Below are positions 26,671-32,924 of a stretch of 32,924 nt of DNA, piece by piece (within the stretch, counting starts at the first letter, position 1; every line of letters starts with the position of its first letter). The position numbers and the translations under genes are program-made. Below the pieces are notes generated by a model. That model was given only the letters and a program-made list of their open reading frames with translations. It was not told the origin of the DNA and ran no database searches. Origin of the DNA: Lentisphaerota bacterium (GTDB taxonomy: Bacteria; Verrucomicrobiota; Kiritimatiellia; UBA8416; JAFGTH01); assembly GCA_016934225.1 (NCBI GenBank), contig JAFGTH010000202.1, positions 1 to 32,924 of the forward strand. Direction: 5' to 3'.

Positions 26671-28299
26671 TCACCCCGATTTCTCGGCATCCGCTCGTCT
26701 CAATTTCCGCCACAGCGTTGCCGGACTGATTCCAAGGATTTTTGTCGCCGCAGTTTTGTTGCCTCCGACCGACTCCAGAACCGCTTGAATATGATTCTTT
26801 TCCAAATCGCTTAACGTTTGCGGTTTGTCTGTAGGGCCGCCACGCCACCGGGAAGCCATATTGACAACCGAACCGGGTAAATCTTCACGCTTGATCACAT
26901 GATCAGCGCACAAAATAGCCGCTCTTTCGATAACATTCTCCAATTCACGAACATTGCCCGGCCACGAATATGACAACAGAGGATCCAGGCACGATGCGTC
27001 CAGTTGAAGCTTGGGCATTTTTAATTTTCCCGCGACATTTTTCACAAACAAACGCGCCAACGGCAAAATGTCGTCAGTCCTGTCGCGCAACGGAGGCACT
27101 TCGATCTCTATCACGCCAAGCCGATAAAATAAATCCTCTCTGAATGTCCCGTTTTGAACCATATTTTTCAAATCTCTGTTCGTGGCGGCTATGACCCGAA
27201 TGTCCACTTTGCGCGTCTTGCTTTCGCCTACTCGCATAATCTCGTGCTCCTGCAATACGCGAAGAAGACGAAGTTGCATACTTTGCGAAATATCACCGAT
27301 CTCATCCAGGAAAATGGTCCCCTTTTGCGCCTGTTCAAAAAGGCCGACCCTGTCGTCCGTCGCCCCAGTGAACGACCCGCGTTTATGCCCGAACAATTCG
27401 CTTTCAAGAAGATTCTCCGGAAGCGCGCCGCAGTTCACTCCCACAAACGGACCGGCAGATCTTGCCGAAAGACCGTGGATATGCCTGGCCAATACCTCTT
27501 TCCCAACACCGCTTTCGCCTGTAATCAAAACGGATGCGTCATAACCCGCAACACGAATCGCCAGTTCCAACACTTTTCTGAATGCCTCGCTCTTGACCTC
27601 CACCATCCCCAGCGAAGCAATTTCCTCGCTCGCATGCATGGCCAATAAATTCTCCGTCGGCGTCTGTCGTTTAAGAACCTGCGTCAGATCCATAACCTTG
27701 CCGCGAATGTCGTCCGCGCGGAAATAGGGCAAATGCGGTCTTATCTCGTCACCCCATGAGGCCGCATCTTTTCCGGAAGCAATGCATGCTCTGTCGCCGG
27801 CCGCTCGACACTTCCGCTCAATGAAATATATTTCCGTGCCCATGCAGAAGGACGCGTATCCGCTTGCGTATCCTACCAGCATCCAACAAGCCGGTTCGTC
27901 GGAACGACCAAATTCCATCAGGTGCTCCTCAGCCTCGCCGGAATTGTGCCAGATTACCTCCATCTCAAATTTGCCGGACGCTTCATCCATTTTCAAAGAC
28001 TTCGTCACAACACGCGTTACCCCCTGCAACGCATGCATCCGCGGACCGGCTTTTATCCATTCTTTCGTGTTGCGCCATTGGAATATACGCTTCATCGCCG
28101 CCGCGTCGGCGTTCCCCCAGTAATACCCAAATCGCGTGAACATCCGCCTGGCTTCGTTCATTCCAACAGTCTGCACCAGATCATGCCGAAACTGTGCGAA
28201 AGCATGAAGCGAATGCAATACCAGCCGCCTGCCATGTAAATTCAAGGCTCCATCCTCAAAACTCACCAATTCCTCAAGTTTTAGCTCTTCCGCCTTCAT
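26671..28299 (-). CDS. sigma-54-dependent transcriptional activator, XylR/DmpR-like (XylR_N + V4R sensor, AAA+, Fis-type HTH)
   Basis: Walker A is [15 protein letters not shown], followed by [15 protein letters not shown] (a GAFTGA variant) and Walker B IFLDEIGD, then [10 protein letters not shown]. The C-terminal HTH is [22 protein letters not shown]. The N-terminal ~200 aa ([23 protein letters not shown]...[17 protein letters not shown]...[13 protein letters not shown]) fit the XylR_N/V4R small-molecule-sensing module. Confidence 0.9.
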
Positions 28300-28327
28300 A
28301 TCAATTTATGCCAATTTATGCGTTATC

Positions 28328-28346
28328 TTATTTCATTCTGAAATAA
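28328..28346. promoter_or_regulatory. candidate upstream activator sequence: palindrome TTATTTCA-TTC-TGAAATAA
   Basis: The palindrome has perfect 8-bp arms and a 3-nt spacer. It lies about 150 bp upstream of the sigma-54 promoter at 28487. A third TGAAATA half-site occurs at 28359-28365, and an AT-rich tract with an IHF-like ATCAAgtttTT lies between the palindrome and the promoter. Confidence 0.35.
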
Positions 28347-28486
28347 TGTATTGCAGTATGAAATATATAGTATAAACAATCAAGTTTTTTCCATCTGAGG
28401 CTGTCACGGTGAGTATAAGCATAAACGGCCCGTAAATATTGCCTTCTTGCACAATTCCTGAGGATGCATTTGCCCCGTACAAGTGT

Positions 28487-28502
28487 TGGCACGACAACTG
28501 CA
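28487..28502 (+). promoter_or_regulatory. sigma-54 (-24/-12) promoter of the M20 hydrolase / ackA' operon
   Basis: TGGCACGacaaCTGCA matches the consensus TGGCACG-N4-TTGCW with one mismatch. GG is at 28488-89 and GC at 28500-01, with exact 10-nt spacing. It lies 54 nt upstream of ATG 28556 and is divergent from a sigma-54 activator gene. Confidence 0.72.
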
Positions 28503-28555
28503 ATATGAGAATCCGGAAACACACAGCTATAACAACACAGGAAAGAGAGGCTCAT

Positions 28556-29785
28556 ATGTTTGATCTTATGCGACGCAAGGCCAAATTGCTTGAGAAGGAT
28601 GTTGTCGAGTTCGCCGCAAGACTGGTGCGCACTCCCAGTGTTACAACTCACGAAGCTGATGTTGCGGCACTCGTGGAAACGACAATGCGGAATATCGGGT
28701 ATGAGAACGTTTTCCGCGACGATGCCGGAAACGTGGTCAGTGTCATACCGGGACGCCGGAATGCTCCAACCGTTCTGCTGTTGTCTCATATGGATACTGT
28801 CGCACCCGATGAAAAGAACAATTGGACGCATCCGCCTTTTGACGGCGTTATTGAAAACGGGCGTTTGCACGGTGTCGGATCGTCGGATTGCAAATCAGGG
28901 CTGGCTGCCCAAATCTTTGCGGGCGCCTTGCTTAAGCGAACCCTGCTTCCACTTGAGGGCAACATGATAGTCGCCGCCACCGTTTCGGAAGAAAACGGCG
29001 GCAGTCCCGGCGCGCGAGCTCTCATGGAAAACACACTTCCGGCCATGCAAATGAAACCTGATTTTGCCGTTCTGGGTGAGCCGACAGGCCTCGCCCTGTA
29101 TCACGGCCATGACGGCTGGGCCCAATTCGACATATTGGTGTACGGAGCAAATCAGTTCCAGGTTGACGACGCTGCTCGCGCCGTCGAAACCCATCTTTCA
29201 GAACGCAGCCGCTATTCGCGACAAAACCGATACAGTGATCAAACTATCGTAGCCAGACGTCCGACACAACTGGTGGAGGGATTCCACCGCGGCACAATAC
29301 AACTCACCAGGCGCATGAATGAGCGTGAAGACTACCGCGATGTTGCCTCGCAGATACATCATAACGCCGCTCTGGTCGCAGAATCGGTGGGTAGCGCCGA
29401 CGTATCGGTATCCATTCCACAAACCAGACAACGCCTCTATACCAACAGAACCGTCGTGACAAAGAACATTATCGAGGCATGGTCCACAGATCCGTTCAAC
29501 GCTGTAATGGAACGCCCGCGCCAGGCCCTGATGGCCGCGGGATGCAAAGCGCAGGCGGGCAAATGGTCCCTACCGCGCTGCGGAATGGCAACGGCGGGCG
29601 GATTGCTGCTCAAGACCTTCGGCGTGCCCACGATAGGGTACGGACCCGGCAACGAGGAAACCGCGCATTCCGCCAATGAATCGGTGGAAACAACCATGAT
29701 CGAGCAAGCCATGTTCGGCACGGCTGTCATCGTCCACAGTCTTGTCGGAATCCCCGTGTGCGGATGGACGGCCGACGAAATTTGA
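28556..29785 (+). CDS. M20-family metallohydrolase (ArgE/DapE/aminoacylase/CPG2-like)
   Basis: ATG 28556 follows GGAAAGAGAGG. Metal-ligand motifs are LLLSHMDTV, GVGSSDCKSG, VSEENGG and ETAHSANESV. The longer ORF from 28439 would include the sigma-54 promoter and was rejected. Confidence 0.85.
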   Translation: MFDLMRRKAKLLEKDVVEFAARLVRTPSVTTHEADVAALVETTMRNIGYENVFRDDAGNVVSVIPGRRNAPTVLLLSHMDTVAPDEKNNWTHPPFDGVIENGRLHGVGSSDCKSGLAAQIFAGALLKRTLLPLEGNMIVAATVSEENGGSPGARALMENTLPAMQMKPDFAVLGEPTGLALYHGHDGWAQFDILVYGANQFQVDDAARAVETHLSERSRYSRQNRYSDQTIVARRPTQLVEGFHRGTIQLTRRMNEREDYRDVASQIHHNAALVAESVGSADVSVSIPQTRQRLYTNRTVVTKNIIEAWSTDPFNAVMERPRQALMAAGCKAQAGKWSLPRCGMATAGGLLLKTFGVPTIGYGPGNEETAHSANESVETTMIEQAMFGTAVIVHSLVGIPVCGWTADEI

Positions 29786-29811
29786 CGCTATTGAGGAGAA
29801 TATACAGCGCA

Positions 29812-30336
29812 ATGAATATACTTGTCTTTAATTGCGGAAGTTCGTCTCTGAAATTTCGCCTTATCGCCATGCCTGACGAGAAAGAGTTGATCAGCGGTGA
29901 GGCACAGCGCATAGGCCCGCCCACCGCTCTGCCGTCGAAAATAATCTACAGAGTCCGCGACGAGAAATTCGCCACGGAAATACAAATGGCGGATCACGAA
30001 GCCGCATTGCGGCAAATAATGACCATTTTAACGGGAATACCCGATTGTTCGCCTGATCTTGTCGCTCATCGTCTCGTTCACGGCGGTTCGCGAATCACTG
30101 CGACGTCTCCGGTCACAAGCGCCGTGGCTGAAGATTTGCGGATGGTGAGCAGTCTCGCACCTCTGCATAATCCGCCGGCAATTGCGGCGCTGGAGGCATG
30201 CCGCAAACACTTCCCGCATTTGTCTCAAGTCGTCGTGTCCGATACCGCATACCACAACACCATACCGGAACATGCGGCAATATATGCCTTGCCGAAAGAT
30301 TTGCGCACGCAAACAGGCATACGGAAATATGGATTT
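29812..30336 (+). pseudogene. ackA: acetate/propionate-kinase family gene, 5' fragment only (about 175 of ~400 codons)
   Basis: GAGGAG lies 13 nt upstream of the start. The product reads MNILVFNCGSSSLKFRL...HRLVHGG...LAPLHNPP...VVVSDTAYHNTIP...GIRKYGF. Homology stops where the family continues HGTSH. The frame then reads into the inverted repeat of the mobile element and terminates at 30489. Confidence 0.8.
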
Positions 30337-30342
30337 GTATTC

Positions 30343-30371
30343 CAGGGTCAGACCTTGGTTATTGACTTTAG
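30343..30371 (+). repeat. left 29-bp inverted repeat of the element
   Basis: This is an exact reverse-complement match to 31401-31429. It contains the small palindrome GGTC-A-GACC. It overlaps the last 8 codons of the transposase gene. Confidence 0.9.
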
Positions 30372-31376
30372 TTTTAATATTCTTGCTTTCAGGCGATTTA
30401 TACGTTTCGTTAATGTCTTGTCTTCTTCCATTTGCCTTTTAAACCGCTGCCGTAGTTTGGACACCGATGAATCGTTGGTATACCCATAATATTGCCCTAC
30501 GCATCTCTGGCTTCTAGCACTTATTTGACACGATAAATAAACCGCTGTTCTTTTGGCGAGCGACGCTTTGTGACCGTGCTCGTGAAGAACTTCAGGCTTT
30601 ACACCAAATTCTTCAGCAACCGTTTCTTCTATATCTCCCAACTCTGCTATTCGCTCTCTTGGCCGATATATGTCTCCGCCACCGCATGCTTTCGCTAAAT
30701 GCATTTCCTTAAGATCATTTTCAGATTCTTCAATAAATTTATCACCCCCTATCGCATACCGGCTTACTTTTAGCGCTTTCTTGAATTCTTCATCATCTTT
30801 AGCTGTCATCTCCTCCAAATATCGCTTATATGCAGCAGCGTTACCTTTTTTCGTTTTAAGCCCCATTTGATATAACCAGCGATAATCTATTATCTCTTCC
30901 TCTTTTGTTTTATCGATGTAGCCCGGGTAACTGCTCCATCTAAATTGGTTCAAATACCTTATCCGTTCAGAGAAAAGCTCGCTCTGCATCCTACGTGTTT
31001 TAACAGGATTTAGATGTATATATCTCGTCAGCCGAATTATATAATCGTCACCAGCGACAAGCTTAGCTCCATATCTCCCCTGAAAACAGTGCCCTGGTTT
31101 ACCATGTTTGTACCTGAAGTACATGCTATAGGCTGTATTGAGCCTTTGCATGAATCGTTTTACGTTGCCCAGCGGGGTTTCAAGCAGAAGGTGGTAGTGG
31201 TTAGGCATTAATACATAAGCATAAAGAATCACTTCGTCTTTTTCAAGAGCGTCTTTAAGCTGATTAAGAAATCTCTGGTAATCACAATCCTCTATGAATA
31301 TCTGCCGCCGACCATTTCCTCTGGAGGTTATATGATACTTCGCCCCTGAATACGTTACTCTCCATGGCCTTGTCAT
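30348..31376 (-). CDS. Y1 (HUH) tyrosine transposase, RayT/IS200-like, with C-terminal HTH-like extension
   Basis: The 342-aa product shows YHITSRGNGRRQIF and the HUH motif in YAYVLMPNHYHLLLETP. The catalytic-Tyr helix is RLTRYIHLNPV. The C-terminal ~90 aa (LAKRTAVYLSCQISARSQRCVGQYYGYTNDSSVSKLRQRF) resemble a DnaA-C-terminal-type HTH. Confidence 0.88.
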   Translation of the reverse strand: MTRPWRVTYSGAKYHITSRGNGRRQIFIEDCDYQRFLNQLKDALEKDEVILYAYVLMPNHYHLLLETPLGNVKRFMQRLNTAYSMYFRYKHGKPGHCFQGRYGAKLVAGDDYIIRLTRYIHLNPVKTRRMQSELFSERIRYLNQFRWSSYPGYIDKTKEEEIIDYRWLYQMGLKTKKGNAAAYKRYLEEMTAKDDEEFKKALKVSRYAIGGDKFIEESENDLKEMHLAKACGGGDIYRPRERIAELGDIEETVAEEFGVKPEVLHEHGHKASLAKRTAVYLSCQISARSQRCVGQYYGYTNDSSVSKLRQRFKRQMEEDKTLTKRINRLKARILKLKSITKV

Positions 31377-31400
31377 ATAAATAACATATCATCATTCACC

Positions 31401-31429
31401 CTAAAGTCAATAACCAAGGTCTGACCCTG
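31401..31429 (-). repeat. right 29-bp inverted repeat of the element
   Basis: ctaaagtcaataaccaaggtctgaccctg is an exact reverse complement of 30343-30371. It lies 24 nt upstream of the transposase ATG and 7 nt from the stop codon of the next gene. Confidence 0.9.
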
Positions 31430-31436
31430 TGTCCGG

Positions 31437-32924
31437 TCATCCAATCCATATGGGCGAACTCCAAGCGGACTCCCTGTCAATCTGTACAACGCGTATGTAA
31501 TAGGACGCTGGGTCTTTCGGATTGTAATTTTTGTCTTCCCACTCTTCTTGTACTTCCCGCTGGCCATGGCAGGGAATGGTGTATGCGATCCTTCCGTTCT
31601 TGACTATTCGGATGTGATCCAGCCCATTTGTTCCTGTGCAAGATATGCTGAGTTGCGGCACACGGCCGGAAGGCAAGGCATGGATCTCAGACCCCATCAG
31701 CGCATTACCGATCCTGTAGTCCAGTTGGATGGGCGTTCCGGTTGTGGCGTAGCAACGCCGCGCATAGAGCGCATCATATACAGCGGCTCGCGTCAGTTCT
31801 GGGGCCAGAACGACTGCCCGCCCCGATCCGCAGAAATGGAAGATATGGTGGTGCTTGACCAGCGGACTTTGCGCGTTGCCCGGATGACCATCGTGACCGT
31901 CTGAAGAAGCGATGACGCCGTACCGCCGACCACGATGCATGGCGTCATGGAAATCTCCGCTTCGGAACCGGTCCGACACGCCTCGGGGAAAATCGCCGTA
32001 GTATTCGCTCGATCCCCAGCTCGAATAGATCTCGTATAGGCGATCATATCGAGGATCATAAAAATCCAGGTTCAAAGGATGTGATGTGGCCGAAGGATGA
32101 TGCGGAACCGTAAGAAATGGGACGCCAGTCTTCTCCATGGCATTCCATAGATCTTTTGGAGTGTTGCACTTGGATGGATCCAATGTCGGGAAACCCCAGT
32201 CATTATTGTTGTTGAACACGGTTCCACCGCTCTCACGGAAGTAAACATTTCTGTGCCCGTAGAGAAGATTAGTATACTCGAAGGCGGGTAAACACACGAA
32301 ACGACCATCATCGTTGTATGTGTCCGCCATGCCTAGGTATTCATCCGTGTGGTGGGGATCAATTTGCCACTCGTGATCCGTCAGGGCATAGAAGTCAAGA
32401 GCGCCCGGTTCTCGAGCGTATTTATAGTTGTCAACGCGGCTACCTATTCCGCAGCCCTTGTTTTCGCACTGATCCATGACCTGGCCGCTATGCGTATGAA
32501 TATCACCGAAAAAGAGTTGATAGTCACCAGCTTTGGGGCGAGCATTCTGAAAAAGAAGACCTGCAGCGTTCCAAATATCAGAAGTTTGCATGATACTCGC
32601 ACAAGGCTCGATCTGTATCCAACGAGTGGATGGAACATCGGCAATTGGTTCTACACGGATGGTGGCCGCCTTTCCCCTTTGCAGCCAAGATGTTGGGATT
32701 TTCAGCATAGCAGGACCGAACGCAGCGGTACTTTCATCTTTGATTATGGAACTTAGATACAAACCTCCATAAGGGGGAGCGCTTTCAATACGGTTAGCCG
32801 AAAACGCAAATGAGCAGTCATTCCCTCGCCACAACTGAGAGTGATTGACGCCACGGATACGAATTGCGGCGCGGCCATTTACGAAAATCTGCCATGACCC
32901 GGTTGGCTGCGGCAGACGACTGCC
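31437..32924 (-). CDS. DUF3604-like (PHP-fold) metal-dependent hydrolase, 5'-partial
   Basis: Motifs FFGDIHTHSG, FYALTDHEW, AFEYTNLLYGHRNVYF, VPHHPSATSH, SSWGSSEY and IASSDGHDGHPGN fit the DUF3604 pattern. The frame has no stop between the TTG at 32834 and the window end (…GSRLPQPTGSWQIFVNGRAAIRIRGVNHSQ-LWRG…), so the gene probably starts outside the window. Confidence 0.75.
   Translation of the reverse strand, partial: GSRLPQPTGSWQIFVNGRAAIRIRGVNHSQLWRGNDCSFAFSANRIESAPPYGGLYLSSIIKDESTAAFGPAMLKIPTSWLQRGKAATIRVEPIADVPSTRWIQIEPCASIMQTSDIWNAAGLLFQNARPKAGDYQLFFGDIHTHSGQVMDQCENKGCGIGSRVDNYKYAREPGALDFYALTDHEWQIDPHHTDEYLGMADTYNDDGRFVCLPAFEYTNLLYGHRNVYFRESGGTVFNNNNDWGFPTLDPSKCNTPKDLWNAMEKTGVPFLTVPHHPSATSHPLNLDFYDPRYDRLYEIYSSWGSSEYYGDFPRGVSDRFRSGDFHDAMHRGRRYGVIASSDGHDGHPGNAQSPLVKHHHIFHFCGSGRAVVLAPELTRAAVYDALYARRCYATTGTPIQLDYRIGNALMGSEIHALPSGRVPQLSISCTGTNGLDHIRIVKNGRIAYTIPCHGQREVQEEWEDKNYNPKDPASYYIRVVQIDRESAWSSPIWIG

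Follow-up and report, generated by a model that had tools for sequence, protein, structure and literature searches.

Close to the right-hand end of a 32,924-nucleotide stretch of Lentisphaerota DNA (contig JAFGTH010000202.1, assembly GCA_016934225.1; hereafter the window) lies a compact unit in which an intact gene for a Y1/HUH transposase has a long terminal inverted repeat (TIR) on either side. The unit occupies positions 30343–31431 (about 1.09 kb), and the gene, on the reverse strand at 30348–31376, encodes a protein of 342 residues in which a Y1/HUH nuclease and a helical middle region are followed by a helix-turn-helix (HTH) resembling domain IV of DnaA. RAYT-like genes with long TIRs unrelated to REPs have been called TIRYTs, and the units that they form TIRtrons (Di Nocera, De Gregorio and Rocco, 2013; BMC Genomics 14:522, PMC3733652). 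In identity and anatomy, we consider the present unit likely to be a TIRtron of the TIRYT class (TnpA-REP subclass 2.1, Bac_DnaA_C-tail branch; RAYT group 1), and its place among the TIRtrons as such can be regarded as close to secure. The architecture is not new, as this sister class of the REPtron already bears a name.

The first-pass annotation had described the ends of the unit as exact reverse complements over 29 nt. Indeed, positions 30343–30371 (forward strand) match 31401–31429 (reverse strand) at 29 of 29 positions and bracket the whole open reading frame (ORF), a match that none of 100 shuffles of the window reproduced. Identity continues imperfectly to 36 nt (92%), which takes the gene-distal repeat to 30378. 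A scan of a genome contig collection with the exact 29-mer gave no match. All factual statements of the first-pass annotation hold, with two amendments. On the gene-proximal side the window agrees as far as 31431, two bases past the exact repeat, with a second copy of the element in run X1, the sediment metagenome that holds the window (0.96 of sampled words). The distal repeat has the tip CAGGGTCAG; the tip of the window repeat reads AGGGTCAG. What had been said of the gene relative to its repeats also agrees with the coordinates, in that the stop codon TGA (30348–30350) lies inside the distal repeat and 24 nt separate the proximal repeat from the ATG at 31376. The second amendment concerns the short palindrome reported within each repeat, GGTC-A-GACC: it is present, but the majority of relatives have GGGGTCAAGTC or a similar sequence instead, so that it lacks conservation across the family, and the repeat ends form no significant single-strand hairpin of the IS200/IS605 or REP kind (best fold -3.6 kcal/mol, z -1.65). 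The window repeats likewise lack a GTAG tag and a DnaA box (TTATNCACA). The word TTATTGACT, which by eye agrees with TTATCCACA at 6/9 positions, was considered as a DnaA box and not counted as evidence.

The protein was predicted from the outset to carry the HUH and tyrosine motifs of Y1 transposases together with a C-terminal HTH tail, and all three elements hold up. The Y1_Tnp (HUH) domain spans residues 9–121 (31014–31352, reverse strand; Pfam E 7.7e-15) and contains the HUH motif NHYH at residues 59–62 (31191–31202) and an FQ pair at residues 98–99 (31080–31085); the catalytic-tyrosine motif YIHLNP follows at residues 119–124 (31005–31022), and a downstream SS motif forms part of WSS at residues 147–149. 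None of the residues H60, H62 and Y119 varies in an alignment of 27 homologues. A model built with AlphaFold2 (mean pLDDT 79.6) finds its best Foldseek match in the Protein Data Bank (PDB) in the E. coli TnpA-REP structure 4er8 (TM score 0.74, on target), followed by IS608 and ISDra2 TnpA (2vjv, 2xma and others). The tail, at residues ~244–336 (30369–30647, reverse strand), is placed by two approaches: a profile of the 27 homologues matches DnaA domain IV over positions 223–336 (8btg, E 1.2e-8; 3pvp; 1j1v), and in Foldseek the tail of the model superposes on the DnaA DNA-binding domain 3pvp with a TM score of 0.86 and a root-mean-square deviation of 1.4 Å. Pfam Bac_DnaA_C recognizes residues 248–307 weakly, at 20.6 bits against a cut-off of 31.5. 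Among NCBIfam models the best is REP_Tyr_transpos, whose 65 bits fall under the equivalog cut-off of 80, while transpos_IS200 scores 17 bits (cut-off 55). No record of the exact protein was found elsewhere.

This fold bears directly on the simplest reading of the locus, namely that it is an ordinary cut-and-paste insertion sequence (IS) with TIRs. Such a reading draws on the repeats themselves, the single ORF and the IS-like size of the unit, but classical elements of this kind possess a DDE transposase and leave target duplications, whereas the enzyme here is Y1/HUH rather than DDE or serine, the family is low-copy, and no target duplication was seen at the window copy (whose flanks read GTATTC and TGTCCGG) or in the relatives L002 and L003 (L numbers denote the loci and contigs that we compared). 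The first-pass annotation had already remarked on the missing duplication; at the window copy its absence says little, because the two flanks do not derive from one target site. Regardless, the protein fold effectively refutes the ordinary-IS explanation.

The features on which the TIRtrons and their genes have been defined are found here almost without deviation. TIRtrons share a GGGGWSAS motif, and their repeats stand at fixed short distances from the gene (PMC3733652); the window unit has a RAYT-like Y1 transposase, long TIRs (29/29 nt) in place of REP hairpins, and a tip, AGGGTCAG, that agrees with the motif at 7/8 positions, with A for the first G. On the protein side, subclass 2.1 of TnpA-REP is characterized by NH[YF]H, FQ, Y[IV]HLNP and SS and by a C-terminal Bac_DnaA_C, HTH_23 or HTH_28 domain (Quentin et al., 2018; PMC6006769). 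The window protein carries all four motifs as given in Table 1 of that study, and its HTH is recognized by profile and model superposition, with a Pfam score under the cut-off; the assignment to subclass 2.1.2 is based on the motifs and the tail rather than on a tree. Quentin et al. found no REP-like structures near subclass 2.1 genes, which average 1.9 copies per genome with copies 49% identical, equated the subclass with RAYT group 1 of Bertels, and put forward the replication fork as a possible target of the DnaA-like domain (PMC6006769). Groups 1 and 6 are the most IS-like of the RAYT groups; of the group 1 genes, 6.3% have a near-identical duplicate and 1.2% lie on plasmids (Bertels et al., 2017).

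Repeats and units across the family

Relatives of the window protein are numerous in environmental DNA, with 5,892 in a metagenomic protein collection, and considerably more distant in reference genomes, where the best of 566 loci is just 53% identical. The reference loci belong mainly to the Planctomycetes–Verrucomicrobia–Chlamydiae (PVC) phyla (Kiritimatiellia, Lentisphaerota, Planctomycetota and Verrucomicrobiota) and to Thermodesulfobacteriota, Omnitrophota, Nitrospirota and Elusimicrobiota. A search of plasmids returned 25 distant matches only, mostly to the N-terminal domain and annotated as "transposase." Close relatives at 89, 80 and 71% identity have the repeat of the window unit, GGGTCAGACCTTGrTTwTTGACTTTA, at both ends and unrelated flanks. 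Comparison of gene copies and their flanks had been proposed as a check on the bracketing architecture, and in an ungapped search about 60 of 73 related loci proved to have a bracketing inverted repeat of 17–31 nt with a span of ~1.0–1.13 kb. Overall, about 50–60 of these 73 loci, which come from many phyla, share the layout of 1.0–1.1 kb. One relative, L001, is a 1081-nt contig that ends in both tips. Many other contigs are of about 1.1 kb, and L001 alone among them was inspected for its ends; we give their number little weight as proof of multicopy elements, as the collection is made up mainly of short contigs and no full ORF fits into less than 1.03 kb.

When 51 elements are aligned on the tip, the outer boundary of the repeats is sharp, and the two arms of an element agree with each other at 0.88–1.0 from GGGG to +21, with no more than background agreement left by +25. 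At the inner positions of the repeat, the consensus for the family reaches only 0.4–0.6, and, because arm–arm identity is nonetheless high there, the arms must co-vary within each element. The inner part has an order of its own: compared with itself at an offset of 7 nt, it shows an identity of 0.53 vs. 0.29 ± 0.02 in shuffles (z ~11). In the window this sub-repeat takes the form of two direct words of 5–6 nt at 30352–30366 and again at 31406–31420, and the words used by different lineages (TTGAC, CTAGA, GAGAAA, CGGACA, CAGTTT) are unrelated. The tip is far more uniform, relatives having GGGGTCAG or GGGGTCAA, with a G before GGGTCA in 83% of arms. The repeat is thus bipartite, consisting of a conserved GGGGTCA tip and a lineage-specific inner part made of two direct sub-repeats 7 nt apart. 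We did not find a report of the 7-nt-offset sub-repeat in PMC3733652 or PMC6006769.

Directly outside the terminal repeat, on either side, a number of elements have what we term stuttered tips, that is, short tandem and often progressively truncated copies of 4–7 outer flank bases plus the GGGGTCA tip. They occur in L003 (4820–4870), L013 (1068–1190), L031 (2921–2960 and 3984–4010), L048 (2759–2800), L056 (2803–2880), L077 (2916–2950 and 3957–4070) and L082 (2808–2960), and in the X1 contig beyond window position 31431. By a loose word test, an extra tip word lies within 70 nt outside 17/62 proximal ends and 18/56 distal ends, vs. 12% of background windows. The stutters may be the footprint of an end-processing reaction. 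In L134 (2169–2213) and L154 (2856–2900), two repeats stand tip to tip, facing outward (...GGTCTGACCCC(G)GGGGTCAGACC...), the layout that a circle junction, or a pair of elements placed back to back, should show. L059 (433, 1181–2179) has, beside its TIRtron, a further inverted pair of another repeat type (GGGGTCAAGTCTTGACATGACAG), its members separated by about 1 kb, together with a solo copy; this pair may be a second unit in tandem.

The repeats also occur without the gene. TIRtron repeats are known to form moderately abundant families in some species, as single, dimeric or grouped copies (PMC3733652). When contigs from Joint Genome Institute (JGI) metagenomes were scanned with GGGTCAGACCTTGNTTNTTGA, 61 stretches were recovered, a TIRYT gene being nearby in 6/61; the gene-less 55/61 are solo ends or short inverted pairs of 47–131 bp. 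About 20 contigs of a single metagenome, Ga0272440, share the consensus GGGATTTGGGGTCAGACCTTGATTGTTGACTATTGGGT, and several of these copies are near-perfect palindromes of 68–104 bp with a 4-nt loop, in other words REPIN-like. The palindromes consist of two facing repeats and are dispersed, with pairs in L100, L105, L109, L149, L155 and L159. In L130 (3852–4247) one palindrome is interrupted by a different palindromic sequence of about 300 bp, an insert that also adjoins the solo end in L126 (11692 onward). Elsewhere, solo or paired copies lie a few kb from the gene (L019, L034, L037, L048 and L086).

Since the repeat type is mostly gene-less in other metagenomes, the REPtron analogy drawn by the first-pass annotation holds at the level of the family. 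For the window unit it stands in part: a RayT-type Y1 transposase is indeed bracketed by inverted repeats, but these are not REPs, having neither GTAG nor a stable hairpin, and the class is TIRtron/TIRYT. A stricter version of the analogy would make the 29-mer a high-copy REP or REPIN family dispersed in the genome and serviced by a single-copy gene. The gene-less stretches, the REPIN-like palindromes on the ~20 Ga0272440 contigs and the moderately abundant TIR families of some species all lend it something, yet within the 32.9-kb window we found no third copy of the 29-mer at up to 3 mismatches and no GGTCAGACC (the repeat core) outside the two repeats. Moreover, no REP-like sequences surround subclass 2.1 genes (PMC6006769), and the extra junction that run X1 shows at the distal tip is not a solo repeat, because at least 368 nt of identical element sequence follow it. 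We consider a true REPtron distinctly unlikely.

The disrupted acetate kinase gene and a second context

The sequence to the left of the unit is a truncated acetate kinase gene, ackA (29812–30336, forward strand), which retains residues 1–175 of ~401: homology stops at ...KYGF, where a 47%-identical relative goes on with HGTSH. Six bases, GTATTC (30337–30342), of unassigned origin, separate the break from the repeat tip. To the right, a DUF3604 gene of the CehA-McbA metallohydrolase type (31437–32924, reverse strand) has a complete 3' end, its stop codon lying 7 nt from the proximal repeat. No other ackA-like sequence is present elsewhere in the window. Two relatives, L162 and L163, have this XylR-type sigma-54 activator and this M20 hydrolase too, and after them come ackA (401 aa) and a second ackA-like gene, ackA2 (366 aa); it follows that at least ~1.7 kb is missing at the window locus. 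The arrangement as a whole, in which a sigma-54 activator of the XylR/V4R type and an M20 hydrolase are divergent and two tandem acetate-kinase-family genes follow the hydrolase, is a module kept in relatives at about 50% identity (window, 26671–30336; L162, 4178–9679; L163, 585–6086; L160, 853–7227), with the two kinase genes of L160 lying on the activator side instead.

Run X1 offers a second view of the same junctions. It is a community sample, of which we used Logan contigs with 56% of the contigs read, and its contigs branch exactly at both tips. At 30343, left flanks of 6.1x (ackA) and 3.9x (other sequence) merge into a 368-nt element piece of 8.0x; at 31431, a 166-nt element piece of 14.7x splits into 5.8x (DUF3604) and 6.9x (other sequence). 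This two-way branching implies at least two near-identical copies with different flanks in the sample. The assembled copy seems to be the minor variant, as the window has C at 31309 and 31321 and the sole X1 contig read there has T at both (14.7x). Neither the sister run X2 nor the metatranscriptome run X3 contains anything of the locus.

Two flanks at each tip also mean that the assembler had a choice, and the contig might have been built across the repeated element, with its left flank taken from one copy and its right flank from another. That the window variant is the minor one fits this explanation as well. Against it, the ackA-to-tip junction lies inside a single 2090-nt unitig-based contig, and the alternative right flank in X1, tried as the continuation of ackA, does not resemble it, as it does not read HGTSH; the matching depths of the window flanks (6.1x and 5.8x, vs. 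3.9x and 6.9x for the alternatives) are a mild argument in the same direction. A chimeric join seems to us improbable, though worth keeping in mind. The truncation of ackA is real either way, because the junction of ackA with the tip falls within the one 2090-nt contig.

The first-pass annotation placed the unit at a gene-disruption and deletion junction and suggested recent mobility or recombination at the repeats. The truncated ackA, the synteny of relatives and the second context in the source run support this, and they make recent mobility or recombination of the window copy plausible. The junction may have originated by insertion into ackA with subsequent loss of adjacent DNA, or by recombination of two copies; either route would have removed the distal part of a sigma-54-controlled M20–ackA–ackA2 operon. 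The consequence for annotation is that the M20–ackA operon of this genome is to be read as truncated by a mobile element.

A proposed model of arm pairing

How might such a unit move? The TnpA proteins of IS200/IS605 act on single-stranded DNA by "peel and paste," using hairpins on one strand (PMC5027513). For the TIRtron we propose a related scheme, in which the two TIRs would be the cognate DNA sites of the encoded Y1/HUH–HTH protein. The HTH would dock on the inner sub-repeats of a duplex repeat, the duplex being supplied either by ordinary double-stranded DNA or by a stem formed when the arms pair in a single-stranded lagging-strand template; such pairing would yield a panhandle for the 1.09-kb unit and a hairpin for the short pairs. 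Docking would bring the HUH/Tyr119 site to the GGGGTCA tip, where it could nick single-stranded DNA, and the flanks could then be rejoined without target duplication, as in "peel and paste." In this family no hairpin lies within an end; instead the arms are kept complementary, the protein has a domain for binding double-stranded DNA, the size is strictly ~1.0–1.1 kb, and short pairs are perfect hairpins. The scheme is the most economical model. The proximal repeat further contains a promoter-like site (31383–31410, reverse strand) known from its consensus match only, with a -35 box TTGACT inside the repeat, a 16-nt spacer and TG-TATGTT ending 6 nt before the ATG, so that the same binding might repress the gene's own promoter (autoregulation). 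Taken as a whole, the model is tentative, and we rate it as falling somewhat short of probable.

A bolder proposal is that the TIRtrons of this lineage have remained autonomous insertion sequences, of a Y1/HUH type with true TIRs that is absent from IS classifications. The HTH would read the arm-paired sub-repeats and the HUH domain cut the GGGGTCA tip, the stutters, found beside roughly one in four to one in three of the family's ends, would be footprints that the reaction leaves, with the REPIN-like palindromes acting as its minimal substrates. We regard this as possible and rather doubtful. Several observations count against the explanation of the window unit and its mechanism given above. 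Most family members look static, since identical relatives keep one context and the literature gives ~1.9 copies per genome at 49% identity. Specifically, the identical relatives P0004, P0078, P0105 and P0031 occupy one context across samples with their neighbors unchanged, which rules out their presence on several contigs as evidence of transposition. The window holds no extra copy of the repeat, and the second X1 copy could come from another strain or species, as the sample is a community. Promoter-like sites in the region are no more numerous than in shuffles, which puts the promoter match at chance level. Finally, we found no experimental work on the TIRYT class in the literature, and the cleavage site, the strand and the intermediate are all matters of inference.

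Several of these points are shared by a rival explanation, in which a domesticated, immobile RAYT-like gene is accompanied by repeats that serve as operators, regulatory sites or sites for a host function (e.g., replication-fork targeting), the ackA truncation being an unrelated deletion. Among class 2 Y1 genes copy numbers are low and the copies have diverged, identical relatives stay in one context across samples, a -35-like box lies within the proximal repeat, and replication-fork targeting by the DnaA-like domain is the suggestion of Quentin et al. (PMC6006769). An operator, however, is needed upstream only, yet some 50 lineages keep the distal arm identical to the proximal one, including those in which it reaches into the end of the coding sequence. 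The repeat type moreover spreads without the gene, 6 nt separate the ackA break from the tip of the repeat, and the second context in X1 has at least 368 nt of identical element sequence. Domestication accordingly appears to us unlikely.

The TIRYT class received its name in 2013 and its phylogenetic placement in 2017–2018. For a first experiment on what a TIRYT does, the window copy is a clean candidate, with an intact ORF, all invariant residues, perfect 29-nt ends, a gene cut at the tip and a second near-identical copy in the sample. Three family-wide details, the co-variation of the arms, the 7-nt sub-repeat and the stuttered tips, narrow the hypotheses on how an HUH single-strand nuclease uses inverted repeats.

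Comparison with known systems

Of the systems that it most resembles, the IS200/IS605 elements IS608 and ISDra2 have in common with the window unit the Y1/HUH fold of TnpA, compactness and the lack of a target duplication. Those elements, however, have subterminal hairpins and no TIRs, are high-copy and near-identical, carry no HTH tail and use a Y---Q motif, where the window unit has TIRs and Y---NP (Y-IHLNP).

The REPtrons (E. coli TnpA-REP, PDB 4ER8; the Pseudomonas REPINs; REP, BIME and REPIN sequences generally) share other features with it. The catalytic fold is homologous (TM score 0.74), inverted copies of the cognate repeat stand on both sides of the gene, and gene-less, hairpin-forming pairs exist at the level of the family. 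In contrast to REPtrons, the window repeats are not GTAG-tagged palindromic hairpins, the protein has an added domain for binding double-stranded DNA, and its REP_Tyr_transpos score (65) stays below the cut-off of 80. That added domain is itself comparable to domain IV of DnaA (PDB 1J1V, 3PVP and 8BTG), on which the C-terminal ~90 aa align and superpose (E 1.2e-8, TM scores 0.82–0.86); unlike DnaA, the window protein has no AAA+ module, and its repeat has, instead of a DnaA box, lineage-specific words of 5–6 nt at a 7-nt offset.

As a class of proteins, TnpA-REP 2.1.2, or RAYT group 1, shares with the window protein its motifs, a Bac_DnaA_C-like HTH, the absence of REP-like hairpins nearby and a patchy and broad phyletic distribution; the 342 aa of the window protein exceed the subclass median of 238 aa. 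From the TIRtrons and TIRYTs of PMC3733652 it differs in nothing essential. At the window tip an A replaces the first G, and the lineage is that of an uncultured PVC-type sediment bacterium whose protein is at most 53% identical to those of the reference genomes scanned. In all else the likeness extends from the RAYT-like gene and the long inverted repeats at a fixed short distance, through the GGGGWSAS-type motif, to the repeats that in some genomes also occur single, dimeric or clustered.

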